A stretch of DNA of 62,741 nucleotides, the filler included, from Sphacelaria rigidula (lineage: Eukaryota): the NCBI GenBank assembly GCA_964200075.2. It is 8 parts of 8 records of this genome, joined end to end, with 100 filler letters (N's around TTAATTAATTAA, not from the genome) between each part and the next. Parts side by side here need not be neighbours in the genome. Positions count along the whole stretch, not along the records: positions 23,569 to 31,323 come from CAXNAA020013562.1; 7 more parts are not named here. The stretch is one strand, 5' to 3'. The translations under genes were made by a program, and so were the position numbers. Positions 1,070-62,741 of the stretch are shown here, in pieces; the first letter of the stretch is position 1; each line of letters starts with the position of its first letter. The notes beneath the pieces were generated by a model. That model did not search any database. It was not told where the DNA came from and saw nothing but the letters and a program-made list of their open reading frames with translations.

Positions 1070-1300
1070 TGGGCACAACAGGCACCATAGGAAAGGTAGG
1101 TAGCCGGTACCGGTATTTGGGACATCTCATACCCTACCGATACCTGTCCAACCGGGTATTTTCAGAGGTCATACCTGCGATAACCACGACACCACGCAAG
1201 GTATTTCGAGATTTCAATACCTACCGTACCCGCTCGATCGGGTATTTTCAAAACTCATACCTCCGATGCCTACGATACCACGGTATTTCTAGATTTTCAA
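1070..1300 (+). repeat. partial copy of interspersed element carrying 82-bp tandem repeat
   Basis: same head (ggtacc..ggtatttg.gacatctcataccctaccgatacc) and repeat units as 3199-3700. Confidence 0.75.
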
Positions 1301-1969
1301 GGACCCGAATTTGGTTGTCCCTCCATAACTTTTAATCCGAGGTGAGGGGAAAAAAAATCATGTAGCGAACGCCCGCGACCACTCGCAAAATAGTAGCTGG
1401 GGCAGGGAAAAAAAGAAAAAAATTGTTGCACAAAGCCGGGGTTCGAACCAACGTCCTGGGTCTTCCCCTCCCGTTTTTTTCTGGCGGTGACCTTTTATTT
1501 TATTTTTGCTAGTATTTGCCCACGAATTTGTTTCCAGCCACCGCAGCACCCGGCAAACACTTCTAGCCTTCACCTACAAGCCTACAGCTACTTGCAGAGA
1601 CGGACATCAAACGAAATGTATACATTCCGCACATTTGGGACTTCAAAGTACGTATTTTCACAAAATTTGAAAAAAAGTGGCGATGCCAGGCACAAAAAGG
1701 TTCGGCCCAAACGGTTTTAGAACCCGCATTTCTCGGGGATTCTTATTATGTGACAAGAAGAATCAGTTTTTTTTCGGTTGTCACCTACATCACTTTTTGT
1801 AATTTCTCCCTCATTTTGCAAAATACGGTCTGCGACGTGACTCGTGCCCATCTTCTTTGCTGACGACAAACCTATGCTCATTCGAAAGCTATCGTTTATA
1901 GCTTTCATTTGATCTACGGAGGGCACTGTGGCTCGACTATCACGGCGAGATGATTCTCAAATTACACCC

Positions 1970-2215
1970 ATTCGGGTCCTTGAAAATTTCGACTTTACCT
2001 ACCGTACCCGCCCAGTCGGGAATTTTAAAATGTCGTACCTACGATACCTACGATACCGCGGTATTTTGAGATTTCAATACCTACCGTACCCGCTCAATCA
2101 GGTATTTTCAAAACTCATACCTACGATACCTACGCATACCACGGTATGGGATGCCGCGGTAAATACCGGGGGTATACCCGGCGATACCGGACGCGATGCA
2201 CTCCCCACGGTGCAG
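1970..2215 (+). repeat. partial copy (3' part) of element carrying 82-bp tandem repeat
   Basis: acctaccgtacccgctcaatcaggtattttc units plus the gtaaataccggggg tail shared with 3199-3700. Confidence 0.75.
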
Positions 2216-3198
2216 CAGCTGGTTCCAACTTATTATGCAAAGGCCAGAAGTTGCCGGACCAGGTGCGTCTTGTTTTTACAAGTAATATATACCCAGATTC
2301 CACCTGATTTGCGTGTTTGGAGCAATTTGAATGAACTCATTATTATGTAGTCTGAAGTGCAGTCGATTTTTTTCTCTCGATCTGATAGGTCCACCACATT
2401 TCTGTTCTTAGAAGGCTTCAACTCCAATTTGTAATGAGTGGCGCGCGGAGAAAAACTACAAAAAAAGAGGCTAAGCTTTTCCGATCGAAAACATGCGGTC
2501 GAAAGGCACGAAGCGGCACTTGACTCCTATCTTACACACCACCACGCCAGATAAAACCCGGTCACAAAACCATGCTCACTCCATCCACCTCATTCTCAGC
2601 TATCATCCCAACCCTACAGCATCGAGTATGAGTTGAGCACAGAGATAGATGCGTTGCATTAGTTGGGTATGCTTTGTTCATTTTCTGTTGGCGAATACTT
2701 GCGCATTTTCTCCCATGGTAGGATCAGCGACGGAACTGCGTGGTACGGTGGGCAACCGAGTTGCGTACACGCTCACGGACAGTGCAGGCAGTACAAAGCT
2801 GCACGTTGTTCATGTCCTTCTCAAGTCGCATTGTAAGCAGAGAGAACTGATATTCCTGGGCTGTCTGCGCTGCACGTTGCCCGCTTCTCTTAAAAATCTT
2901 ATCGTACGAAACACGCACACATGCACTCGAGACACACTGCTTGTAAGCAATGCGAACAGCACAGACTGTCTGTACTGCACACGTGTGCCATGTACCGTTT
3001 ACGAATTTTACCGTCTTTTTTCGATCGAATCCTTGAAAATTCGATTAGACCCAACTCAACAAAAATGTGCGATTTTCGCTCAAATCAATTCTATCGCCAC
3101 ATTTTTCTCGATATTCAATATATATATATATATATACATTTGCCAAGACACGCCCTGAAACGCTTCTCCGCACTGCCGGATTACAGTTTTAAATTTGG

Positions 3199-3700
3199 TA
3201 TAGAGGGTAAGACAGGTACCTGGTACTGGTATTTGAGACATCTCATACCCTACCGATACCGACCCAATCGAGTATTTTCAAAACTCATACCTACGGTACT
3301 CACGATACCACGGTATTTCGAGATACCAGTACCTACCGTACTTGCCCAATCGGGTATTTTCATATGTCATACCTACGATACCTATGATACCACGGTATTT
3401 CGGTATACCAATACCCACCGTACCCGCTCAATCAGGTATTTTAATATGTCGTACCTACCATACCTACGATATCACGGTATTTCGGTATACCAACACCTAC
3501 CGTACTCGCTCAATCAGGTATTTTCATATGTCGTACCTACGATATCTACGATACCACGGTATTTCGGTATACCAATACCTACCGTACCCGCTCAATCAGG
3601 TGTTTTCGAAACTCATACCTTCGACACCCGCACATACGACTGTAGGGGATACCCCAGTAAATACCGGGGGTACGCTTGGTACGGTACCTTACCTACGGTT
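3199..3700 (+). repeat. non-autonomous element with about 5 copies of an 82-bp tandem repeat
   Basis: gata(c/t)cacggtatttcg recurs at 3304, 3386, 3468 and 3550 (period 82); this explains ORFs 2921..3841 and 3342..3785. Confidence 0.85.
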
Positions 3701-3974: not shown

Positions 3975-5326
3975 CAAGGGCAGGTCGAGTAGAGTATGTA
4001 CTTTTGAGTGCTCGAGTGAAAACTCGAGTGTTAACTCTACTCAAAAGTTTGAGTAGGTCGAGTACGGCATCAAATACTCTACTCAAATTTTGAGTAGGCC
4101 GAGTACGGCCTCAAATACTCTACTCAAATTTTGAATAGATCGAGTACGACCTCAAATACTCTACTCAAATATTGAGTAAGCACTCTCAGTGGTCCTTGAG
4201 TATAGAGTATCACTTGGGTATGGTGAGTATCCGTGACCGTCGGCGGCTTCGTGACGTCACTCCACAGACTATGTTGAATACATGGGTGAACGATGGTCAT
4301 CAATTAGATGGGTGACGTTACGTTACAGGCTACAAGGAGTATGAGCGAATGATGGCCGTGAAAAAGTAAAAAAAACGTGCAGGTGAAAGAACAGTTCAAG
4401 ACTTCGACTGCCCAATACTCCGATATGATTTTCACGCTTTCCAGTACCCCCGCTAGTCTACACGGTACAATCCGAACGCCCTTCGACAATACCTCAATAT
4501 TCGTTCTACCCTAGTTTTCTACCATCTGGTTCTGATCCAAATGCTTCCTCGAATATACTGTATCCGAATGTTTGCCGCAGTTTGATCTTGAATCAGCACT
4601 AATCATGGGTGGGCAACTCTGGGAATACCTCGCTATTTCCTGTACCCGAGTTTGAGTATCTTGCGTACGAACTTGAATACTGAAGTTGAATTTATAGATT
4701 TTCGGTACATCGGGTCCGGCCTCAGATATTTTGCCCAACTTTCAGGTAGATTGGGTATGGCCGCAAATACTATACTCAATTTTTGAGTGGATTGAGTATG
4801 ACCTCAAATACTCTACTCAAAGATGTGAGTAGATCGGGTACGGCCTCAAATACTCTACTCAAAATTTGAGTAGGTCGAGTACGGCCTCAAATACTCTACT
4901 CAAATATGGAGTAAGCACTCTCAGTAATACTCGAGTATAGAGTATCACCTGGGTGCGACCTCAATACTCTACTCGAATTTTGAGTAGGTCGAGTACGGCC
5001 TCAAATACTCTACTCAAATTCTGAGCAGGTTGAGTATGGCCTCAAATACTCTACTCGAATTTTGAGTAGATCGAGTACGACCTCAAATACTCTACTCAAA
5101 TATTGAGTAAGCACTCCCAGTAACACTTGAGTATACAGTATCACTTGAGTATGACCTCAATACTCTACTCACATTTTGTGTAGATTGAGTATGATCTCAA
5201 ATACTCTACTAAAAAATTTGAGTAGATTGAGTACGACCTCAAATACTCTACTCAGAATTTGAGTACTTAAAGTGTGACTCTTCGAAAATACTGAGTATTG
5301 AGTGTACTCTACTCGACCTGGCCTCG
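3975..5326. mobile_element. non-autonomous hAT-like element with internal 41-bp palindromic satellite
   Basis: TIRs caagggcaggtcgagtagagta / tactctactcgacctggcctcg; 8-bp TSD aagtctta (3967-3974) / aagtcttt (5327-5334); 41-42 bp units actctactcaaattttgagtaggtcgagtacggcctcaaat. Confidence 0.8.
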
Positions 5327-9805: not shown

Positions 9806-10245
9806 TCCATGGCAACGAATCTCGATTTGTACAAGTATGAGGAATTCAGCCCGTCTAGAGGCGACTTTCTCCCGTGGATTGATTTTTCGGACCCCGGTCC
9901 GTTGGGCAATGTTTTTCGCCTAGCTTTGAGCAAACCAGATCAATTCTCCGATTCTCTGGACGTTGAATTTTTGTTTACAACCTTTCTGCCCAAATTGGGA
10001 CACTCCCGCATCTCCCCCGATTTTTTTGTTTGAATGATCGGGGGAGATGCGGGAGTGTCCCAATTTGGGCAGAAAGGTTGTAAACTAAAAGTCAATGTCC
10101 AGAGAATCGGAGAATTGATCTGGTTTGCTCACAGGTAGGCGAAAAACATTGCCCAACGGACTGGGGTTCAAAAAATCAATCCACGGGAGAAAATCGCCTG
10201 TGAACGGGCTGAAATCCTCATATCCAAATCGAGATTCGTTGCCAT
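9806..10245. repeat. foldback inverted repeat, arms about 215 bp, 15-nt loop
   Basis: ORFs 9809.. (+) and 10085.. (-) give nearly the same peptide; perfect 49-bp inner stem 9973-10021 / 10037-10085. Confidence 0.9.
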
Positions 10246-14089: not shown

Positions 14090-15546
14090 CAGGCTGGTTC
14101 ACGGAAAAAAAACCAAACTCTGTCATCAGCAAATGCCTTCTGCAATACGCACCCAATAGTAGTGTACATGGTATCATACTGACCGCAATGAACAGACAAA
14201 GAGGGTGACATAGCCGAATTTTTTTTTCAAGGCTATAGCGGTGGCGCTATGAACGAAAATGTGTCTCGACCAATCAGCGCCTTTCGAACTGTTCCGAAAT
14301 TGAAAATACGAAATCCAAGCCCAATTTCCACCAAATCTCCACATGCTTCAAATCGTAGTGACCGTCATCACCTCAAGAATCTGAGGGTAGAATAGGATTT
14401 GAAAACGGTTCCAACGGGGTCGAATTATACCCGAAACCGTAATGTTTCGGTGATGTGGAGTTTGGCGTGGTCTAATTTCCACTCATGATACGCGGGAAAG
14501 ACCCAGGGAGCCTCGTGACGATTTCCCTTGTATCTGTTGTAGAAAAGCTCACATCATCCTCAATCTTCGCAGTTCCGTAGGTATTGATGCTCCAATTGGA
14601 AAAATTGTGTTTTTGGCAGGGGTTTAAAGTTTCTCCGTTCTCTACCGGCTTCCGGGGGTCCCAGTACAAAGACCCCCGAAAGGCGGTACAGAATGAATCA
14701 AGAGAAAAAATAATAATATGATGCGTCCCAGGATGGTCCAAGAAACACATGTAAAATTTTTGGTGGAGAAACTCGAAAATCTCATGCAACTTTTTTTTCC
14801 TTGACGTAAAATTCACCCTAAAAGATCTTTCCATACTCAAACCAAGTAGTTAGGAGTTTGCACGTTTTAAGCTCACATGCTCGCACAAATGCGCAAATCT
14901 TTACGCATTTATTAGGAGTTAGATCCTGAACCTCTGCACAAATGTGCTTTGAATCACTACGCAAGTTTTGACCCATGAGATTTTTCCAATTCTTGGATAT
15001 TTTACCGTTTTTCGGGGGTCCGACGGGATCCAAGTCGTTTTTTCGAAGTCATCCATTCTCGGACCCCGGAAAACCACAGTTTTTTTTCATTTTTTTCGCA
15101 AACGCTCTACCGCCGCAAAACCCAAGGGAGAACCCCACAAAGTTTTGTGGCCACACTCGATCCACTGGTGCTGGATTTTTCATGTTCACGTTGATAAAAG
15201 GCCCAAAAACGCCATTTTCATACTCAAATCCAGTAGTGTGCCGTTTCACCGTGGCACGGCAAGGTTCGTCGCACAAACGCGAAAAACTTCGCGCCGTTTC
15301 AAGGAGTTGGACCCTGAAAACTTGCAAAGGTGTGCTATGGTTCATTACGCAACTTTGTATGGACAAGGTTTTCTTTTTTGTTCATTACCATTTCAAGGGG
15401 GTCCGACTGAATCGAAGCTTTCTCGAAAAACTGGGACCCCGGAAAAACGGTGAAAAAAGTAAAGAAGTGGAAAAAAACTCGTCTGTACAGAGTTGCGTTA
15501 TGACCCATAGAACACTTGTGCAAAAATTCAGGGTCTAACTCCTTAA
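14090..15546 (+). mobile_element. long non-autonomous TIR element (TA|CAGGCTGGTTCACGG terminus, Tc1/mariner-like) with nested internal inverted repeats
   Basis: terminus shared with 44607; about 14760-15546 is the reverse complement homologue of 44664-45425; repeated aaggagttagaccctgaa motif. Confidence 0.65.
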
Positions 15547-15712: not shown

Positions 15713-15778
15713 GCTTTGTAGGGATGCGAGGTCAATGGTGTTAGGACTATGGCATGCATGATCATGAGTACACCCCCC
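15713..15778 (+). mobile_element. LINE 3' end, subfamily B, C-tract tail
   Basis: gggatgcgaggtcaatggt...catgagtacacccccc; encodes GCEVNG..T.A, homologous to the LINE C-terminus GCIVNDQMTTA at 27690-27740. Confidence 0.7.
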
Positions 15779-23568: not shown

Positions 23569-23795
23569 CCCCCGGTACGTGCATTTCATTTTGGTCTCGC
23601 AGATTGGGTCAGCACTCCCGCACCGCGTCGAATCACGACACACAAACCCAGTCGACTACTTTGTTTACTCACGTTCTCACGCTTTCCACGGTGGAACTCA
23701 CATCACGAGGAAAAAACGCAACGCATCTGGAATCGAACCCCCGTTTCTCCACCCGAACGGCGACAGTCGGACCATTACACCACCGGGGCGCGGCG
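23569..23795 (-). mobile_element. tRNA-derived SINE family 1 (head and part of body)
   Basis: minus-strand A box TGGTGTAATGG (23782-23772) and B box GGTTCGATTCC (23739-23729); body shared with four other copies. Confidence 0.8.
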
Positions 23796-23924
23796 ATACC
23801 AGGAGATGAAGCAACTCATTGTAGGCTGCCATCCCTAGTGAGATAATTAGTATGCTTCAGGAAAATTTTGCAGGATGCACCTCACTCTTCATGTGACCCG
23901 CCGAACACATCACGTCACTTCGCG

Positions 23925-24148
23925 CTTGGTGATTACGAGCCCAGTCCGGCGAAAACCTGGCGTGCTCCGTCCCGGCTTTGTAGGAATGCGAGGTCAACGG
24001 TCTTGTGACTACGACATGCAAGATTATGAGTACACCACCCAAAAAAACCACCACCACAACAAAACAACAAAAAAAACAANNNNNNNNNNGACTGCGCTAT
24101 GGCTCAACACATAGAAGTTATAATCTCCCCCCCCCCCCCCCCCCCCCC
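23925..24148 (+). mobile_element. two consecutive C-tailed LINE 3' ends (subfamily B, then a different subfamily)
   Basis: ...gtaggaatgcgaggtcaacggt...gagtacaccaccc, an N10 gap, then gactgcgctatggctcaacacatagaagttataatct followed by about 21 C. Confidence 0.6.
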
Positions 24149-27669: not shown

Positions 27670-28730
27670 GGATGGAGAGGGTGGACGTACTAACTGTTGC
27701 TTGCGGTAGTCATTTGATCGTTGACAATGCATCCCTCCCGAGACGAAGCACCGTTCCTTCTCCTAATAGAGAGACCTCCAACATCTCGGCGCTCACTACG
27801 TTTATTCCATACAGTACACAAGAGCCCTCCACATATCCCCTTTCTTTTTCGCCGTCTGTGCTCACCATCCATCTCCTAGTACCGTTTAACCACCGTTTTC
27901 CGGGTTCCATCTGATTTTTTGCCACTTTCTTTTACTATTCACATCCCCCCCTTTAACCCTTTTGGAACTCGTGAAAAACAGCACAAACTCCCATATGCAA
28001 GCCTGTCACCGGGAAAACGTCACTTCGAGTTCGGTGCACGAATCGGTCATATTCCATATAGTTGAAGTCATAGTGGTACACCGTTTCGGTGGGCTGCATT
28101 ATCAACACTTGTAGAAAAACAACTTTATCTTGTTCTTCTCGTCAATTGCAAATCATCATTTTTCCATCAACGGTCCCCCACCCGACATCGCAGTTACGCT
28201 TTTTTCGCGAGTCCATGGGGCCATGCAGATCTCTTTCCATCCTTATCCCATCTCTCAACCCTCGGTAAATCCTCAGGTGCTCTTCCTCGTCCACTTTCTG
28301 TCTTAGCACTCATGTTCCCTTTATTCCTTCATGCCCTTTACTCTTGTCTTGTCCCCCCCGCACCCTTTCCTCTTTCACCCTTCCATACTTTTTGGGCCAC
28401 GCTATCTCACCTTATTCCAGCTTGCCCTTTTGTTACTCTTTCCGACACAGCCTGATCAGCTCTGGCTGGCAGTCTCTTTCTTGGCATGTTCCTTACGTCA
28501 TATTGTCACTCCAATTTCCTCAGATTTACTTGTTTTCAAGTTGGTACATTCTTAACTCCGCTCTCAAAACTGCATTACTCCTCGGTTTTGAGCATTCAAG
28601 TACTGTCTCAGCAGCTGCAATGTGTACTGTTTCCAGCTTCTTCACGAGCTTCGCGTTCCCTTCCCATAGTTTTCCTGCATAATCTAGCTCTGGCGCGATC
28701 ACTTTAATCAGAACACATCTTTTCATAGAT
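27670..28730 (-). mobile_element. 5'-truncated, decayed LINE (subfamily A; RT thumb to C-terminus)
   Basis: IAPELDYAGKLWEGNAKLVKKLETVHIAAAETVLECSKPRSNAVLRAELRM (RT domain 8/9-like); HLRIYRGL; C-terminus WNKRSERRDVGGLSIRRRNGASSREGCIVNDQMTTASNS* followed by a decayed C tract. Confidence 0.85.
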
Positions 28731-29447
28731 TGCCCTGTGTCCAGGGCGCTTTCAATTTCAATTTATTTCGGTGTTTGGGACGTTGCCGTCTCGGATTTCG
28801 GCGGTGAACCCGGAGTGGTCTCGGCTGGGCCCTCTACTCTAAAATGAAAGTCTGCCCGTACCTTATTTTGTATTTAGACGTGGTATTTATCTCCTTACGG
28901 TAGGTAGTGGAGGGACTGGTGGACTCGTTTCAGTACCAAAACGCCCAGGTATCATCATGTACATGCTTTGTTTTGTGTTTTGTTCGAATCACGTGTTGCA
29001 TGAAAAATTACCTGTACTGCAGTATGGTTGCGCCCTTGCATTCCTTGCCAAAAACTACGGTCCCCGCGCCTCGTACCACAGTACACTTCATGACAACCAG
29101 AGCATGTCAGTGGCGTTTATTTCATGCATATCCGTTCTTGAACTGGTAAGGTGTACTAGTTCGTACAGCACGGAGCATGCGGCAGTACTAGATCGAAAAA
29201 CTGGTACACCACACCTCCAAGTGCAACAACGATGGACTCGCTGGCATTTCTTCTGCGTGCTTTCAAATGAAGCGTCATGAAGCATGAGGAGCAGTACCGT
29301 GACGGGCTGCCACAGGAAAGTACAACGCTGTAGTGCATAAGCGCGCTGGCACGGTGTCGGCAACACGGAAACGCTAACGCGCGTGCTGCTCGAAAATAAT
29401 GCGCTCCGCCCGTGTGATTTAATTCAGTACGTTTTATTGAATTCCAA

Positions 29448-30641: not shown

Positions 30642-30870
30642 TGTAATGCGTGCGAGGACCGCGCGCTTAGAGGACCGCATCGGAGTTTGAACATCCCCAT
30701 GGTTAGGGTTAGGGTTAGGGTTAGGGTTAGGGTTAGGGTTAGGGTTAGGGTCATGGTCAGGGGCGTGGTACCTGCAGGGACGGGCCCGATTGGTTTAAAA
30801 AAACATCGACCCTTAGGTGTTTTGAACTACGGCGCGGTCCTCTAAGCACGCGGTCCTCTCACGCATGACA
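30642..30870. mobile_element. 229-bp MITE with TGT..ACA termini, 37-bp TIRs, 4-bp TSD and internal telomeric repeats
   Basis: tgtaatgcgtgcgaggaccgcgcgcttagaggaccgc / gcggtcctctaagcacgcggtcctctcacgcatgaca (3 mismatches); TSD acgg at 30638-30641 and 30871-30874. Confidence 0.92.
30703..30750 (+). repeat. (TTAGGG)8 interstitial telomeric repeat
   Basis: eight perfect units inside the MITE. Confidence 0.97.
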
Positions 30871-33356: not shown

Positions 33357-34919
33357 TTCACGCGGCATCCTCTGGGCAACGTTGAAAAAACAAATCGCAC
33401 CCATCCCGCGTGTGGGTGGTGCCTCTAGACTCCCATGTGTTCTATTTGTCGGGTCGTTTCGTTTGCAGTGTGGAAATATCGATCTATTAATTTGTTGTTT
33501 TTATCTTGTTCAGCTTCCCCGCGTCCTTGTTTCTTCACGTTGTCGCGTGAATGCTTCACCAAGGCGGGCTCGCAGGGTCCTGTTGGTGGGGCGTCGTCGC
33601 CTATTAGTTATATGCTGGGTGCTGGGGACCCATTTTGAAGACTGAAAGCATTTCACTTGTTGCGTTGGGGACAATGCCCTCTGGGGGGGGGGGGCTTCCA
33701 CCAGCGTCTTCATTGCTCCGCTCCGGTGCCTCGCGGCAGAAGCGGCGATCTGTGACTACGGCAGGCTTTCGGAAACGCACGTATTATGAATCGTTGCTTG
33801 AAACGAGTGCTCGACAAAACCATTTTTTTTTTCGACGAGAAATGAAATTATGCGTTCTCTTGAGCGGTCGAAGCGGATGAGAGAGCCGCGTTTTCCAGCC
33901 CAGCATCCACAAAAAAACTCACGCTTGAGAGCAATTGCGCCGCCGAGACATGTCCACTTGCCCAGCTTTCCCAATTTTTTCCGCGGCGATCTTCTCGGAT
34001 GTCGAAACACGTGAGCATACATTTTTTATGTCCATCAAGGTCTCACGGCTGAGAGCCAAGGTTACGAGTCGATACTGAGCATATCGAGTCATCGCGTAAC
34101 ACGATCTACACGTACTTTACCGAGCACTCATGGCGGGAGGAGATGTGCAACACCAACCAAAAAAACACTCGGCGGGAGTTGAAACAAAACAACAGCTTGG
34201 AGACGGACGATGTCGCTGTTTTTTTTTCTCCATACTGAGTATTGAGTATGCTCCTTGGTCCTAGAGTGAAGGAGTATGCAAATGATCATCATCCAAAATC
34301 GTCCGGGTGAACTCAACACACCGTGCAGAATGATAGCTTACATGTAACGCCAGCGGGCAACAGCGTACAAGATCGCTCCCGAAGTCATGATGACGTAGCC
34401 CCCCCCCCCCCCCAACAAGTGAAGAATAAGGGGGAAATATTAGCCCACCGACTTTAGCTGTGCACTGCCAACTCTACGCATCTCCTCCCCCACCCCTTTC
34501 AAGTAGACTGTGTTTTTTGTCGGTCACCCTCCTCGTACAACCCCCCATCCCCCGGAAAAATCACATCAGTACTCTGCCCATTTGACGAGTACCCACAATC
34601 TCTGCTGCAAAAATATACCATTGCATCTCCCCTCACCCACCCACACCACCGCAATATCTCGTATGCATCTGCGGAAACCAATCTTCATATTATTGTCCTT
34701 CTCCCCCGGCCAGGCAACCCGTCCCCCTCCCGACGGGCGCTGGCAAAAAATGAAAATAAAAAACCTTTGCAGAAAACCGAAAGTTTACATGGATAAGAAT
34801 CCCAAAACACGCACGCACTCACACACACACACCCGCACACGATCAACTCAACTCCTCTCGAGCAGCCAGCCGCTGGCTCATCCACATGCCCGTCTGCCCC
34901 ACTTGTATACCTACCTAAT

Positions 34920-39278: not shown

Positions 39279-39486
39279 ATGGAAAACGCTCACACAGTCT
39301 CTAGCCATCGTTCAAGCCATCGCACGGAGCAAACGGACCCGTAACGGATGAGATACATGCATGATGCATGGTGGCATGCCACAAGAGTGCTCACTCTGCC
39401 ATTAGCATGTATCTCATCCGTTACGGGTCCGTTTGCTCCGTACGATGGCTTGAACGATAGCTAGAGACTGTGTGAGTGTTTTCCAT
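39279..39486. repeat. near-perfect hairpin, 82-bp arms, 44-nt loop
   Basis: 39279-39360 versus 39405-39486, 3 mismatches; the arm is related to 43320-43450 and to the 40930-43290 units. Confidence 0.92.
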
Positions 39487-40929
39487 GTGTTGCTGTGTCC
39501 ATGCGGTGCTTGTGGGACGGATGCTGAATGTTGACGGATGTAACAGATTACGTCAACGTTGACGTGAATAGCAAGACCCATTCCGAAACGTGAACTCCAT
39601 AGGACCCATCCTCAGCGAAAACAATGGTCCGGTCCTATCACCCAGGAGTTCCAAACATCGGTCTTGTACACTTACTTCGCCCGCACACATCCATAGCACA
39701 CGTGTCAGTTCGACATTAAGGTGAAACTCGCCAATAGTTTCGAACCCTGAAACGGCGATGTCCTTTACTGAAACATTCAGCGGGCGGGGACGCAGCACGT
39801 TTGAACCAGCCGAGCTTCTATCCCGTTGACATTCATCCCGTGGCTGCAACTGACTCTGCGCGCATGGCGCTGGAGAGAAGCGCCCTATTTCCTCCAATTT
39901 GATACAATGAGCTTGGGACTGCAAGTATCGATGGCTTGGCACTGTGCCCGCACGGCAATCTTAATAGCCGCGAACGAAGAATCCACGTGATTGAGGGCCA
40001 GTGCCGGGATTTGAAGTCTTCGGATATCACATCTATTTTGAGGACCACTGCTTCATTTTCAACCCGATGAGAATACACGTCATTGAAGAAATCACTATAT
40101 ATCTGAGTACGTCCTCATCGACATGCAGCCGCTACCGTCGGCCCTGCCCGTCTTTGCCGGCCATAAGAATGATACTGACGCGTGATGAGCCGCGTCACGT
40201 ACACACGTGAGTATTAGGCACCTCAAGTGCTGCCGTTCTCACCTTGACTCCATGATAGCCATCTACCGACGAAAGCTGTGGTCGTACTCCGCCGCAGTGG
40301 CTGTCCGCAACCTTTTATTGGCAGCTTAGTTACGCCCATGCCAGACAAGATCGTCGCCAACGCGCGAACACGCCCGCCCAAATACGAAAAATCCGGAGAG
40401 TAAAACAGTTTGGGTGGGCGCTGCGTCAGACATGCTCGTCCACTGGATTTCCACGTCATGTTCCACCATATTGTGGATACGAGCTACGGAGGTGGATATG
40501 AAATACAGGATATAAACGAGTCGGTTCCACAAGATACGAGGCAAGTTTTCCGTGCGCAGAACATCGTCCGCTTGCATTTTGTAAGTGAGGAACTTGTCAG
40601 CACACGCCCTTTATATATAATACCTTCTTGTCCGCGATATGTCTCTTCCTGTCTGCCTCTCCCTCGCTCTTGATTCCATATTCGTATCTACTGATTTTTC
40701 TCATATCACGGCATAGCACTTCTCACCCCCTTGAACACGTGAGTGACAGTCCATGGTGACATGGTGTGGTGTCGAAAACAATTCCAACGGTAATTCCATT
40801 CTGGAACGCTCGTTTGTTTAATGTCAAGCCATGTCCCACGGGTTGACCTACTCTTCTTCCTGGGTCTTGTTTCCTTCGTTTTATTATTTTGTAATTCTCT
40901 AGACTCTAAGAGCAAGGTTATTTCCGAGT

Positions 40930-43290
40930 CGCAACTTGGACACAGTTATGTCCAAGTCCAGCCGCGATTTGAATACCCACCCGCGTGTGTCGCATGCGCG
41001 TTGCATGGATGCCACAACCTGGAATACACTCATACAGCCCGTAGCCATCGTTGAAGCCATCGCACGGTGCGAACGCCTCGTGGCGGACGAAACACGCGCC
41101 CGCTGCACAGTGCCAAGAAATACCGCCGCCCGACTGGACTTGGACATAAGCTATGTCCAGGTCCAGCGAGTGTAATACCTGTCCGCGCTCGTCCCATGTA
41201 CCATGTATCGACACAACAGCACATGCAACACACTCACACAGTGCGTAGCCTTCGTTCAAGCTATCATAGGGTGCAAACCGCCTCGTGGCGGACGAGAAAC
41301 GCGCCTGCTACACACAGTGCGAAGAAATACCGCCACCTGACTGGACTTGGACACAGCTCATGTCGAAGTCGCGACTTCGACATGAGCTATGTCCAAGTTC
41401 AGCGAGTGGAATACCTGCCGGCGCTCGTCCAATATACCTTGCATCGACACCACAACACTCGGAATACACACACACAGTTCGTAGCCATCGTTCAAGCCAC
41501 TGCACGATGCATACGATTCCGTGGCGGGCGCGAATCGCGCCTGCTAGACACAGTACAGAGTCAAGAAATACCACTGCGCCCGACTCGGCTTTGACATAGC
41601 TCATGTCAAAGACGCGACTTGGGCGACTTGGACATACGCTATTTGACTGAGGGCTGGGTGTCATAGGGGCAATTGATCATGTGCTTGCGATTGATAGCGG
41701 CAGCGTTGCATAAAAGGACGCTAATGGGTGATTGCCGCTAGTACATTTTAGGGAAATGCTAAATACACAGTTATGTGTTTTCTCACGTCCATAAACGGTT
41801 ATGTATTTGGAAAAAGTCTATTTACCAGTCGCGACTGGTGAATAGTCATGTACAAGTGGCGAGTGGTGAATAGATATGTACAAGTCGCGACTTGTAACTA
41901 GTTACGTACAAGTCCAGCCGCGATTTGAATGCCTGTCCGCGTTCGTCTTATGTGCCTTGCATCGACACCACAGCAGCTGCAATACACTCACACAATCTGT
42001 AGCCATCGTTCGACCCATCGCACAGTGCGAACGGCCCAGTAGCGGACAAGAAACGAGCCTGCTTCACACAGTGCCAAAAATATCGCCACCCGACTGGACT
42101 TATAAATAGTTATGTACACGTCACTACTTTTAGGTATGTACAAGTCCAGTTAGTAGAACACCTGTCCGCGTTCGTCCCATGTGCCTTGCATCGACACCAC
42201 AGCAGCTGCACACTCGCACAATCTGTAGCCATTGTTGAAGCCATTGTACGGTGCAAGCGGCCTCGTATCGGACGAGAAACGCGCCTGCTACACACAGTGC
42301 CAAAAATACCGCCACCCGACTGGACTTGTACGTAGTTATGTACAAGTCGCGACTTGTCTCAACGTTGATGACATTTCTAGTCCATTGGACACTATAAATA
42401 CATGCTTGACCCTTATTAGACCGTGGTGCGGGTAGTCCAACTGGATCACGCATTCTTTTTCAAGTGAATATTATTCAGCAGGTGACCTACCCTCCCGGCC
42501 AAAGGGTCAACCTGCCTAAACCTAAGTGCATCGCAGAATAACGCGGTTAAAATGTACTAGCGGCAATCATCTGCTGTTGGCGTTCTTGTCTGCACCGCGG
42601 CCGCTATCAATCGCAAGCACATGATCACGTGTCCCATGGCACCCAGCCCCCAGTTGACATATATTATGCCGAAGTTGGTCCCATTTTTGACTGAAACCGT
42701 GTCCAAGGCCAGTCGGGTGCAGTGGTATTTCGTAGGACTGTGAGTAGCGGGCGCGATTCGCGCCCGCTGCGGTGGGGTTTGCACCGTGCGGTGGCTTGAA
42801 CAATGACTACGTAGTGTGTGAACGTATTGCGGCGCTGTGGTGTCGATGCAAGGCACATGGGACGAGCGCGGGCAGGTAGTCCACTCGCTGGACGTGTACA
42901 TGAACTACTTACAAGTAGCGACTTGTACATTACTATTTACAAGTGCAGCCGGGTGGCGGTATTGTTTGGTACCGTATATAGCAGGGGCATTTCTCTTCCG
43001 CTACGAGGCCGCTTGCACTGTGCGATGGGCTCGAACGATCGCTACGGATTGTGTGAGTGAACTGCAGCTAGCCGCTGTGGTGTCGATGCAAGGCACATGT
43101 GACGAACGCAGAGAGGCAAATCGCGGCTGGACTTACATCACTATTTACAAGTCTGTACACAACTATTCACCAGTCGCGGCTTGTACATACTGTAACTATT
43201 CACCAGTCGCGATTTGTACATACTTATTTACAAGTGGCGACTGGTAAAAAGCTTTTTTCCATGTATTTTGTTACATCCAGAGACCGTTAT
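40930..43290. repeat. cluster of three copies (two direct, one inverted) of an element built from about 205-235 bp tandem units
   Basis: gtagccatcgtt.aagccatcgcac recurs at about 41041, 41245, 41481, 41999 and 42225; tail 41650-41750 is inverted at 42548-42655; head aaaaag.c...ttaccagtcgc at about 41811 is inverted at about 43236-43257. Confidence 0.85.
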
Positions 43291-43539
43291 GTATGATGGT
43301 ACATCCATAACAACTCGACTACATGTCAGCGTCCGTCCCACGAGCCCCAAGTGGACATAGCAATACGTGGAAAACACTCGCACCCTCTCCAGCGGTCGTT
43401 GAAGCCAACGCATGGTGCAAACGGATCCCTGACGAATGAAAAATGTGCTCACTGTACAGTACAAATAAACACAACCATACCGCCTCTCCACCCGAGTAGA
43501 ATATCACGAAATCGAAGCCGCCCTTTTACAGTAGCTATT

Positions 43540-44606: not shown

Positions 44607-45425
44607 CAGGCTGGTTCACGGTGATCACCACAAAAACACTCATCGGCAAAACCTCACGCCCTTTTAAGGAGTTAGACCCTGAAATTTTGCACGAATGTTT
44701 CATGGGTAATTGCGCAACTTTTGACGGTTGGGTTTTTTTCTTTCTACTTTCTTACTTTTTCACCGTTTTTGGGGAGTCCCAGATTTTGGGGGGAAACCTC
44801 GACCCAATCGGACCCCGTAAAACGGTAACAAAAAATAAATGAAAAAACCCCAACCGTCAAAATTTGCGTAATTACCCGTAGAACATTCGTGCAAAATTTC
44901 AGGGTCTAAGTCCTTAAAACAGCGTGAGGGTTTTCGCTTTTGTGCGATGAAATTTGCCGTACCGCGGTGAAACCGCAAACTACTTGATTTTAGTACTAAA
45001 ACGGCGTTTTTGGGCCTTGTTTGACGTGACTATGGAAATTCAAGCATCAGTCGATCGAGGTTTGCGACGAAAATTTGTGGAGCCCATCCTTGGGTTAAAC
45101 GGAGGCAGATAGTTTGCGAAAAACTGGAAACAAACGTCGTAGTGCCGTTTTTCTGGGGTCCCAGATTGGAGACTACTTCGAAAAACGACTTCGATCCCGT
45201 CGTACCCCGAAAAACGGTGAAAAGCTCAAGAGTTGCAAGAAAAATCGTCCGTAGAAAGTTGCGTAATGATACATGGCGTATTGATGCGAAGTTTCAGGAT
45301 CTAACTCTTAGTGACAGCGTAAAAGGTTGCGCGTTTGTGGAGGACGTGGACTTGAAACGTGCAACTCCTAAATACTTGGTTTTAGTATGGATTCGTCTTC
45401 TGGGGTGAATTTGACGTCAAGGCAA
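44607..45425 (-). mobile_element. partial copy of the TA|CAGGCTGGTTCACGG element
   Basis: terminus at 44605-44621; internal palindrome of about 250 bp at 44664-44917; inverted homology to 14760-15546. Confidence 0.7.
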
Positions 45426-45899: not shown

Positions 45900-46635
45900 T
45901 TTCGTGAGACAACCCAAAAGTCTTGCGCGCGTTCCCCTCCACACTTCCGACTGCTCTCCTCATGAGTAGAACCACCTATAGCAACTGGGCTTCTGCGCTG
46001 CAACCACCCACAACAAACAATAGTTCCGTGAGATTGAGAGTCTACGATACGATTGAGAGTAGGCGCGACCGGAAATTTCCGAGAACTATCCATCAAGTAC
46101 CGAGTGGTGAAGTCTACTGGCATGTGACCCCATCATCAGATTCAAGGGTTCGTTCTGGGTGAAGATACCAACGGCTCGGCCAGTAAAAAATCGGAACCAG
46201 TGGCATTCGATGCGTTATATTCCATAGCATAAGTACTGGCTAAATAAATCAGAATGCGTAATGCTACAGACGTTTGAATCTTTACAATGGGAATCGGTCG
46301 GTAGGATGGCGCAAGAATGTACATCAGATTAGGAACAGTACGGTTAGAACATGGGGCTATTCACGATTGCTGGTTTGGGATGAGTGTCGATAGACTCTGT
46401 GACATTTCTTGGAAACGTTTTGACGAGAGATACGTAGCTGATACTAAAAAAAGTATTCGGAACAGAGCACATCGGGGATTTGCCATTATCATTTGCAAGC
46501 CTTGGCAGTGGTGATGATAACATGACGCCGGTCTCGCCGGAGATTGCTTTCGATTGACCTTTTCCCGACTGTTCCGCGTGTCATTTTCCAACGAGCCCAA
46601 TTTCGTTCTGACGCCCGAGACACGCCGCCCCCCCT
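45900..46635 (+). mobile_element. decayed LINE 3' region ending in a C tract (tentative further subfamily)
   Basis: frameshifted pieces LRVYDTI...HQVPSG, YIRLGTVRL...CWFGMS and FAII..LQ..WQW; ends gacacgccgccccccc. Confidence 0.35.
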
Positions 46636-56893: not shown

Positions 56894-59800
56894 TGGCTGG
56901 TTTCAGAAAATCGAAATTCGTTGTGAAAGATGCAAGAAGCCGGGTGCAAAAACAAGTTCTGAAACTTCATTAAAAGAATGAATGCAGGGTCAGCACGAAG
57001 AGCAAGCTAGCAAACACCTGGAGTGGTGCATTTTGCCTCGGTTCATATGAAACGTTTCTGGGGGGGCTACCGTAGCACGAGTTGGGTCCAGGAACGGTGC
57101 CCTTCCCTGGCCTTGCGCTTGTTGTGGGATACGGTTTGGCCCAATATGCGATCCATTCCTATGGTTGGGAGAACATACCGCCCGTTGTATAGTTTTACTC
57201 CAAGTATCAGGTGCGTAACGACGTCAAAGGTTGAGCACAATATGTTTGTCATTGCACATTCCCGGTACCCGCACATTATCAGTTTCCAGTGTCGAGGGTG
57301 TGAGCAAAATCAGCCCCAACATGCTTTTCGACGTAAATGCTAGCTTTAAATTTCAATTGCGGCAATTTCAGTTCTTGTAGGTTTCGCTCCCTTGCTGAGA
57401 AGACACGACGCAGATATGTCAACGCCGGCATCTGTTTCTAGACCGCATGGTGGTACCCACGACGGTATTCCCCACGCTCAGGCTGCGGCTCTTGCGTGCT
57501 TTTGATCCCCAAACGACCACCTGTAGTACTATACCCTGACCGACACCACCTCTTTTGGCTCCAAAGATTTCACTTGCGGACGAAAGCAGGTACCAACGTG
57601 ATGCCTCCAATAAGAAACACCCGAGACGGGTACAACATGCACCACCCCACCGTACTGGTGCCAAAAACTCGCACGGAAAAGGTACAGCTTACACCCGGCC
57701 CCGCTGAGGCCAAAAAAAAAAGAAGAAAAACAAAACAGCAACAACAGAGTGTTTCCCCCATCAACATAACTGTTACAGATCGTTTCCATTCCCTCTTCCC
57801 GCTTCTGTAGCTGAAGAGCTCAGGCATAAACCTCAATAATAACTTGCATGCATACCATAGCACCACTCTGAGTGATACGTCCAGTGAATATGCACCGCAC
57901 CGCTTACATAGTCGTGAAAGCAACAACAGAAGACGGACGAGACTCGAAAAGCAACACTGCCTGTGAGTTTATGTGTCCACTTCACCAGCGGTGGAGGCCT
58001 GATCACCAGCACTATAGTCCTCTTTCCCGAATTAAAGTCAAACAGCACGCTCTATCTCCGAAGACATATCTTGATCAAACGTACATCATCGCATGTCCAG
58101 CCACGCACGGCGAGACAGACGCTGAAAGGTACTGTAGCAACACATGTCGCAACACAAAAAAAAAAAAGCAAAAGAGCCACCTGCGGTTGTGGAGTGTATG
58201 CGAACCCGTTAATCGCCATCATTGGTCATTATTGACCACCATCCCGATGTTTTCCCCTCTTCATATCCTTTACAGTGGCACTAAAACGCACCGAAAACGC
58301 TGTCGCTTCATTGACATTGTTTTTCACGGCGAGAAGTTGCCAAAAAAGACGCCGACGAAACAAAGTTACAAATATTGGTACAACACACGGCAAGTGTCTC
58401 CTCCTCGGAGTCATTTTCAACAACAGCAGCAGCAGCAGCAACAGGTAGTGTCCCGTTTAACGCACGATTGAACCAAACAAATTCACGCGTACAGAAGAAT
58501 AGCATAGCACATGAGTTCAAGTCCTCCAAGCACGCAACACTTTGCCTCGCGCTCTTCATGCGTTGGGCTTCACTACTTGATGCCTCCGAGCCAAGCGAGA
58601 TCTCGACAGGTCGAGACCGAAAACGTCCACCCACCCACCCCCGCCCACCCTTCCTCGTAAATTACGTTATGAAAGCACCGGAAGGTCAGCCGTAATGAGG
58701 GCATTAAACCGTGCCCTGTACGACCTCAATCGTTTTCAACAGAACGAGGGCTCGATTCTGGAATGCCCTTCGGTAAATATTCGAGAACAAGTATCATCGC
58801 CCGCAGGTACAACTCGCGGGGTCAAGAGTTCCTCAAAAACGCTACTCCCACAATCCCCCCCTCCCCGCCCCTTCCCTTACTCCCTTTTCCTCCCAACCCC
58901 TTGGTCGCGATACTGGACTACTAATTATGATCGGCAGCTCACCATCAGATGAATATCGGGGCCGGTTCGGCAGCTGGTTGGTCACGTTTACTTCCGCAGT
59001 TTCGAAATTGAGCGACGGTCAGTAAATGATGAACAGCTGCATCGTGGCTGCTCTTCAGACGTGCACGAAGCACGGCTGAAGACCAACCGATGTTCCCTTA
59101 TGGGAAACCCCGCCCCTCCGCCCCCCGGCCCGGCCCCCCTCTGCCCTCCCCTCCGTATTTCCACCTCTATCCCTGAAGGGGGGGGTTCAGGTTCAAAGGT
59201 CTTCAGTATCTATCGGCCGTTTTTTGCCACCTCAAAGTCTCATGCAAATGAATCAAAACTGACTGATGGGTATGTTGCGTGTGCGGCGTGCCGGCGGGCG
59301 GGGTAATCGATATTACCATCGAGCGATCCTACGATACAGGTAGGAGGAGGTGGGGGGGGGACAGGATCACTGCACGAAACAAAGGGACGCGTGGGTGTGT
59401 AAGAAGACCTTATGAACCTCACACACTCGTTGCCACGCGCTTGTATGTGGATAAAAACATTGCTAAGTGGTACGTTCATACCACGAGCATTCAAATGTAA
59501 TCTACTGCTTGAAGCGACGCTTCCAGTGACTGGCACCTTCGTGGAAGCAGTGGCTCAACTCCTCGTCCCCGCTCACCCCACCGTCGAATCGTAGGGTAAT
59601 TCCAACGTGACCCTCATCACTACCAATTTCATCAAGATCAGTGTCCACATTATCCACGTTAAATTTTGCGTAATTCGTATGTGAACGCACCACCAGTAGG
59701 CGGCGTGCCTACTCCGTCCAACGAGCAGACGGGTCAGCACAGTAGGGTACGCTCCCCCCCATCTCTTGCCCATCTTACCCGCGAATACCATCCACCTCCC

Positions 59801-60031
59801 GCCATGTAGCACCCCCTGCCATGTTCCACCCCTTCAACCCTTAAGAGCGGGGGAGCGGGGGAGGGGGGGGGGGGGGGGGGAGGGCAACGGGGGCGCAACC
59901 GACCACTGCCGGGGGCGCGGGGGGGGGGGGTTTGTTGACCCAAAAANNNNNNNNNNCCCCCCTCCCCCGCAATCCCCCCCCCCCCCCCCCCAGGTGCCCC
60001 CCCCTGCCTTTCCCCCCCCTTCAACCCTTAA

Positions 60032-60065
<34 letters not shown>

Positions 60066-60082
60066 GATAGTCAACGGTGGCG

Positions 60083-60229
60083 TCAACGACCATCGCATGT
60101 GGCAGCGGAGGAGGTGTTTGCTTGATCCAGAAAGCAGACGGACAAGTAAGCAGGTTCCATTTTCTCGTCTCGCTCGACTGTGATCTGCATGCACCCGCAA
60201 GCCTTGCCGTCATGAGTCTTGGCCTGGAC
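60083..60229 (-). CDS. PAS-domain protein, terminal exon
   Basis: cccccccgtccag|GTC; VQAKTHDGKACGCMQITVERDEKMEPAYLSVCFLDQ...R* resembles the final PAS/PAC beta strands. Confidence 0.8.
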   Translation of the reverse strand, partial: VQAKTHDGKACGCMQITVERDEKMEPAYLSVCFLDQANTSSAATCDGR

Positions 60230-62632: not shown

Positions 62633-62741
62633 CCCCCCCCCCCGCGTCTCGAAAGGGATGCGTGGTCAATGGTCAAACGACTTAGGCAAGCAAAAAATGA
62701 GTACGCCCCCCCCCCCCGCGAGCCTGGTCCGGCGAAAACCC
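62633..62741 (+). mobile_element. chain of LINE 3' fragments: C11, subfamily A end, C12, start of a subfamily B fragment
   Basis: cgtctcgaaagggatgcgtggtcaatggtcaaacgacttaggcaagcaaaaaatgagtacg(C)n matches the 27690-27750 end; cgagcctggtccggcgaaaacc matches 23936-23957. Confidence 0.75.

Follow-up and report, generated by a model that had tools for sequence, protein, structure and literature searches.

We analyzed a window of 62,741 nt of DNA from Sphacelaria rigidula, which consists of eight contigs of about 7.8 kb each, taken from an assembly of 244 Mb in 27214 contigs (GCA_964200075.2) and joined by N spacers. The spacers are artificial and the contigs unrelated, so features lying across a spacer are not neighbours. 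The window contains copies of two element families, hereafter family A and family B (Table 1). Contig ends cut off three of the copies (15713, 39178 and 54887). The copy under study is a remnant of a family A LINE whose ORF is interrupted by stops and frameshifts. It matches the family A profile at 28515-28172 and 27957-27687 and presents 60-64% identity to residues 1016-1359 of the related protein P0002 (tblastn). As the preliminary description had read it, the frame closes on the minus strand with GCIVNDQMTTASNS and a stop codon, followed by a short UTR and a C-rich tract, which is decayed (about 27670-27686).

The better-preserved end reported earlier (AAA TGA GTACG, then C12) is borne out by the copy at 62645-62705, which lies at the 5' junction of the family B copy at 62718-62741. 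Profile search also recovered the ends reading GAGTAC(A) plus a C tract, at 15772(+), 24034(+), 39119(-) and 54847(-). The copy ending at 24034 is followed, after CCACCC, by an A/C-rich stretch up to an N gap, which is probably noisy sequence. Three additional termini had been suggested at 24148, 34413 and 46635. The C runs at these places (24127-24148, 34399-34413 and 46628-46634) gave no match to the 3'-end profile of either family, and the 37-70 nt upstream of them had no non-identical relative in 831 kb of loci; we therefore consider them plain C runs. A Pfam search with two short peptides of the window yielded nothing useful.

Table 1. Element copies, target site duplications (TSDs) and artificial spacers in the window.
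Feature	Position	Strand	Evidence
Remnant of a family A LINE, last ~345 codons of the EN-RT ORF	27687..28762	-	profile matches and tblastn
Family A, 61-nt 5'-truncated copy, end TGA-GTACG	62645..62705	+	profile, E 7e-18
TSD 5' copy, C11 + GCG, last two bases common to the element	62633..62646	+	sequence
C12 tail and TSD 3' copy (C run + GCG)	62706..62720	+	sequence
Family B, 5'-truncated copy, start only, cut by contig end	62718..62741	+	family B profile 483-505, E 6e-4
Family B, 245-nt 5'-truncated copy, then CCACCC	23790..24034	+	profile, E 6e-82
Family B 3' end with C6, contig start	15713..15778	+	profile, E 1e-18
Family B 3' end, interrupted C tract, contig end	39103..39178	-	profile, E 4.5e-22
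Family B 3' end, interrupted C tract, contig end	54829..54887	-	profile, E 3e-10
Artificial spacers, N44-TTAATTAATTAA-N44	7757, 15613, 23469, 31324, 39179, 47034, 54888		

Several other repeats are present in the window. A fragment of the endonuclease region of the family A LINE lies at a contig start (54988-55104, minus strand; 77% identity to residues 229-267 of P0002). Degenerate tandem repeats form two arrays (1197-3672 and 4034-5265; periods of about 82 and 41 nt), and a near-perfect hairpin resembling a MITE or foldback element was observed at 9836-10222 (arms of 186 nt, 93% complementary, spacer of 15 nt). We also observed an interstitial, telomere-like (TTAGGG)n tract (30701-30754) and, at 39280-43456, six to seven diverged copies of a repeat (57-180 nt, spaced by 200-500 nt), one of them partly inverted. 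Finally, 14884-15546 and 44834-45339 are 70-79% alike and belong to a dispersed family of repeats whose long inverted arms are possibly the termini of a DNA transposon.

Family A is an endonuclease/reverse-transcriptase LINE. The reverse transcriptase (RT) domain was found in two of the six ORF pieces scanned from the S. rigidula genome (PF00078; E 7e-19 and 2e-12) and the APE endonuclease domain in all four full-length relatives (PF03372; 4/4). Three loci of the same genome (L097, L098 and L105) align to the endonuclease region with 55-68% identity and carry the motifs GIQESW, GDFNAR and TDH, and the best match of the protein among solved structures is L1 ORF2p (E 7e-21). The elements also present the 5' truncation, fixed 3' end and TSDs of variable length that define APE-type LINEs. 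The closest full-length relatives encode a single EN-RT ORF of 1328-1360 aa, are 70-74% identical in the RT and end in nearly the same peptide as family A. Copies of S. rigidula jointly span residues 1-1360 of P0002, in broken pieces only, and no intact copy was seen among them. The copies that we examined have decayed (identity to the window remnant about 70-79%, with stops in most of them), and young long copies may have been collapsed in the assembly.

Nearly all named relatives of the family A protein are Ectocarpus proteins. In a quick RT tree of 62 rows, each aligned over more than 270 aa, the RT of S. rigidula falls in a 12-row clade with six Ectocarpus-named proteins (SH-aLRT 100). Its identity to the two Ectocarpus protein clusters is 70% and 59%. 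A search of the S. rigidula genome for a second LINE family similar to Ectocarpus P0006 returned only matches of 38-48% (best 46-48%). Family A is likely a member of the RTE-X group known from this brown alga, a label taken from the Ectocarpus table and not from a tree with Repbase references. Distant relatives were also observed (P0009-P0037; 41-51% identity in the RT), some of which form clusters of hundreds on contigs of megabase size. A GCVVNG-like peptide closes several of these proteins, a hint that the 3' RNA signal described below may be old.

We then analyzed the 3' ends across the assembly by counting exact matches to a tail-free 25-nt motif of the family A end. This motif was found 3142 times, with balanced forward and reverse counts, while its reversed control was found 0 times. 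It is followed by NNCCCC in 2405 of the 3142 matches and by NNAAAA in a single one. The corresponding 26-mer of family B has 2175 matches genome-wide, of which 1286 are followed by NNCCCC. Five As occur within 15 nt of the end in only 4 of 228 element ends, so that the 3' poly(A) tail of L1-type elements was not found here by either count. Intact family A ends present the stop codon, a UTR of 5 nt and then the C run. We further inspected 30 matches of each family at sampled loci: positions 3-9 past the motif are C in 21-29 of 30 copies for family A and 17-28 of 30 for family B (27-29 of 30 at positions 3-4 in both families), and beyond the C tract the sequences diverge, with neither a conserved UTR nor an A tail. 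The central claim of the preliminary description, a C-ended LINE with almost no 3' UTR and no A tail, is therefore confirmed at the scale of the genome.

Loose element 3' ends presented the same C-run consensus in the runs X1, X3, X4 and X6. Viral contigs gave 0 matches to the elements, and metagenome scans with P0016 and P0003 gave no confirmed loci. One 'algae metagenome' run carries the same unique flanks as the S. rigidula copies. Element ends are found about once per 10 kb (20 in 200 kb of sampled contigs) and many exact matches to the motifs lie close to contig ends. It is possible that homopolymer lengths are wrong in such a fragmented assembly.

Family B had been described as a LINE subfamily on the basis of the peptide GCEVNGLMTMA. 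We found instead a non-coding element that shares its last ~70 nt with family A and whose longest stop-free frame is 83 aa; the peptide GCEVNGLMTMA arises by chance from the tail common to both families, and the coding interpretation was rejected. Counted from its head, family B is about 500 nt long, and a variant extended at the 5' end reaches about 575-580 nt. Across 22 seed stretches of family B, the best matches to LINE proteins fall in the flanking 5' halves. An origin as a tRNA-derived SINE is not supported either, as no tRNA-like or Pol III RNA head was detected (ARAGORN, 0 of 22; Rfam on one copy, only a chance match with E 4.9). Family B is often found in tandem, with itself or with family A. 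In a variant (L195, L114, L190, L130, L116, L113 and L043), the 5' end bears a second copy of part of the element's own 3' region, which precedes the C run and the head. Family B is a SINE-like non-coding partner of family A.

Target sites were analyzed from 231 distinct 3' ends, 160 of which were testable (the other 71 were left out because of contig edges, N gaps, lack of alignment or a length beyond the profile). Requiring a duplicated unique flank of at least 6 nt at the 5' boundary, we identified TSDs in 21 of the 160 copies (shuffled-pair control: 0.85%), with 139 copies showing none under this strict test. The 5' copy of the duplication is led by at least four Cs in 19 of the 21 cases, relative to a random-position background of 1.4%, and in 13 of 15 when the six loci chosen by a C-flanked query are removed. 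The family A copy near the end of the window is one example (C11-GCG before, C12-GCG after). With the 5' copy taken as a proxy for the empty site, these results indicate that the target is a C/G run. At the one locus compared with four runs (L216), no empty allele was seen; contigs of X1, X3 and X4 break inside the same L216 insertions and the joints come from repeat copies. At this locus, a family A copy (2252-2318) and a family B copy (3086-3617) lie between four exon-like pieces of a single X6 contig and are thus probably intronic, X6 being RNA only by our guess.

Of the 21 TSDs, 9 have more Cs on the 3' side, 1 has tracts of equal length and 11 have more Cs on the 5' side, and both medians are 10. 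In four cases the 3' tract gained 10-15 Cs where the 5' run has only 2-6, from which it follows that Cs are sometimes added. In 3 of the 21 the 3' tract has only 1-3 Cs, and, as 11 in all are shorter than their 5' counterpart, a long C tail on the RNA is not required. These lengths fit a nick whose position varies along the G run, the Cs being either templated by the RNA or gained through slippage. Alternatively, the C tract could be purely target DNA: the RNA would end at GUAC(G/A) with no C tail, the endonuclease would prefer G tracts, and the longer tracts would come from later slippage or assembly error. The 12 TSDs whose 3' tract does not exceed the 5' tract, the equal medians and the three copies with 1-3 Cs are all compatible with this scenario. 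However, it leaves the four gains of 10-15 Cs to slippage over short runs, which is unlikely, and it does not account for the nearly constant Cs at positions 3-4 past the motif in both families. We therefore consider it rather unlikely.

The elements had also been proposed to explain the many C/G homopolymers of this DNA. Only 2 of the 16 C runs of at least 9 nt in the window adjoin a detectable element, as do 8 of the 35 long C/G runs in 200 kb of sequence (20 evenly spaced long contigs), and the elements were rejected as the main source of homopolymers. They use and duplicate C runs without explaining most of them. A region of dense homopolymers at 59784-60133 (G18, G12, C18 and G33 around an N10 gap) has no adjoining element and may in part represent sequencing noise.

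The end shared by the two families might be a structured RNA signal. The last 66 nt of family A before the final base are predicted to fold into a three-way junction with a 6-bp closing stem, followed by one base and then the Cs. This fold of ~67 nt lies inside the end of the ORF and overlaps its last ~20 codons. The predicted pair probability of the closing stem is 0.95-0.99 in family A and 0.43 in family B. The two families differ at only 1 of 42 paired positions, where the pair is kept, relative to 12 of 24 unpaired positions (P = 6e-6; Fisher test), and folding them jointly predicts the same three-way junction. The fold z-scores are modest (-1.9 for A and -1.3 for B), and family B alone prefers another fold (-22.8 kcal/mol, relative to -19.0 for the shared structure), with a probability of about 0.02 for the third helix. 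Among four copies folded individually, the closing stem was kept in two (L013 and window positions 23950-24036) and absent in the 3'-cut L181 and the decayed 27686-27770, and alignment folding of decayed copies (75 of family A and 35 of family B) gave no stable consensus. In L228, a related locus from another record, identity reaches 98% in the final 100 nt, relative to 66-92% upstream and 77% for the protein; the locus ends in a C run and then shows a weak match to the head of family B. Its contig is filed under a bacterial MAG although it carries a eukaryotic LINE end and a B-like head, which likely represents host contamination.

The 5' ends of family A copies are also concentrated at this structure. 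In 42 copies whose 5' end is visible, sampled without regard to length, truncation falls at 61-71 nt in 24, where the 5' arm of the closing stem lies (P = 9e-12; binomial test over 37 copies of 28-100 nt). No such peak was observed in family B (1 of 41 copies at 66-78 nt). The peak of family A is narrow and is not explained by an assembly bias against long copies; it is possible that it results from release of the RT after a protein-bound domain, from fold-back of the cDNA or from RNA trimming. A bolder and improbable extension, resting on the predicted fold, is that the last 67 nt form a tRNA-acceptor-like RNA domain, trimmed or protected at its base and C-tailed, and that this 67-nt mini-RNA would be the commonest substrate of the LINE protein. 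If true, priming of poly(C) on G tracts would here have a naturally occurring minimal cis-element, which is 98% conserved across lineages with 77% protein identity.

In vitro, poly(C) can be produced by CCA-adding enzymes. The Cs could be untemplated, an acceptor-like stem being extended by a host nucleotidyltransferase or by the RT, with trimming at the stem base generating the copies of 62-67 nt. The predicted arrangement of closing stem, single base and Cs would suit such an activity, as would the 24 of 42 copies that stop at the stem, but the predicted fold is a three-way junction rather than a cloverleaf, no tRNA-like match was found, and family B keeps the stem without showing the peak. 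Since a genomic C tract is already present in every donor copy, no C-adding enzyme is needed, and we view this explanation as very unlikely. An origin of the C tracts in sequencing or assembly errors at the edges of repeats can practically be dismissed: many copies do lie at contig ends and N gaps of an assembly in 27214 pieces, but the C-led TSDs have unique flanks on both sides, the same C-run consensus appears in four independent-looking runs, in L228 and in the Ectocarpus annotation, and forward and reverse counts are balanced.

Our preferred reading is that families A and B are a LINE, likely of the RTE-X group, and its non-coding partner, both C-ended and flanked by C-led duplications, which likely insert by target-primed reverse transcription from a G-strand nick at a C/G tract; we give this reading a probability of about 0.8. 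Target-primed reverse transcription is well known in its general outline. In the present case, the LINE protein would bind, with stringent recognition, the folded signal of ~67 nt common to A and B, and its endonuclease would nick the G strand, at a G run or inside it. The G-rich 3' end released in this way would pair with the Cs just past the signal and prime the cDNA, and a second nick about 10-25 nt away would produce the C-led TSD. The Cs of the RNA would most likely come from read-through into the genomic C tract of the donor, with slippage gaining or losing some of them. G-tract priming as a mirror of L1 had been proposed in the preliminary description: the C-led TSDs fit this proposal, under which the nick would fall in the G strand and priming would use G:C pairing. 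Mammalian L1 carries a poly(A) tail and primes on T tracts. Family A resembles it in having a homopolymer tail that matches a homopolymer-led TSD and in its heavy 5' truncation, but it presents C/G in place of A/T, a sequence-specific 3' signal, a UTR of 5 nt and, in its close relatives, a single ORF.

The preliminary description, made without a search, knew of no account of a C-ended clade. In fact, the annotation of Ectocarpus contains RTE-X LINEs that end in (C)n and have C-rich TSDs, together with a non-autonomous partner (PMC12477816). In supplementary file 1 of that study, RTEX-1_Ec32 is recorded as 'single EN-RT ORF; (C)n 3'' and RTEX-2_Ec32 as '(C)n termini/TSD', both with 'C-rich' TSDs and a very high copy number. 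A non-autonomous element of 604-607 bp, RTEX-N1_Ec32, has a 60-bp 3' end 83% like that of RTEX-1/2 and 'can be present in tandem' (PMC12477816). The RTE families listed there end in (CAA)n and the CRE families in (CA)n, so that, by elimination, the two Ectocarpus protein clusters would most naturally correspond to the (C)n pair. Compared by description only, RTEX-1/2_Ec32 resemble family A in their EN-RT ORF (single in the closest relatives of family A), (C)n end, C-rich TSD and abundance, and the S. rigidula elements combine the (C)n 3' end, the C-rich TSDs (19 of 21) and the RT grouping of this Ectocarpus type. They differ in belonging to another genome, in the decay of the copies found here and in the second Ectocarpus cluster, which has no close counterpart in S. 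rigidula (best match 46-48%). Again by description, RTEX-N1_Ec32 is similar to family B: it is non-coding, shares its 3' ~60-70 nt with the LINE, has a C-rich TSD, is often in tandem and, likewise, has a head of unknown origin, although its 604-607 bp differ from the ~500 nt (variant ~575-580 nt) of family B. The locus is a further case of an already annotated (C)n element type.

Related features are known from other systems. Stringent 3' recognition and slippage on terminal repeats have been described (PMC3747384): in the 'stringent' LINE/SINE pairs of eel (UnaL2) and silkworm (SART1), a shared stem-loop 3' end is read by the LINE protein and a terminal simple repeat is implicated in slippage. 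Here the repeat is a C homopolymer and, unlike in these pairs, the predicted signal lies inside the end of the ORF. The table of green-algal RTEX termini in the same source gives (CA)n, (CAA)n, (CCAT)n and longer units, and (C)n is not in it (PMC3747384). The term poly-C has been used for internal UTR tracts (PMC5381506), and a Saccharina RTEX-1 has been named in a paper whose passages on it say nothing on element ends (PMC4421812). Neither the C tail nor a mechanism for it was found in the main text of the Ectocarpus study (PMC12477816), and our search, which covered literature outside Repbase and most subscription journals, found no other paper.

These results extend an annotation in which the (C)n end is recorded in the supplementary table of the Ectocarpus library, with no mechanism given alongside it. 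They add the statistics of C-led TSDs, a short predicted 3' signal that lies within the ORF, the truncation peak and a partner that is predicted to keep its helices. With ends about once per 10 kb and many motifs near contig ends, the elements may contribute to the fragmentation of the S. rigidula assembly. The intact relatives P0002, P0003 and P0076 constitute material for testing the mechanism, namely whether C:G homopolymer pairing can serve in target priming as A:T pairing does, and what leads an APE endonuclease to prefer G tracts.
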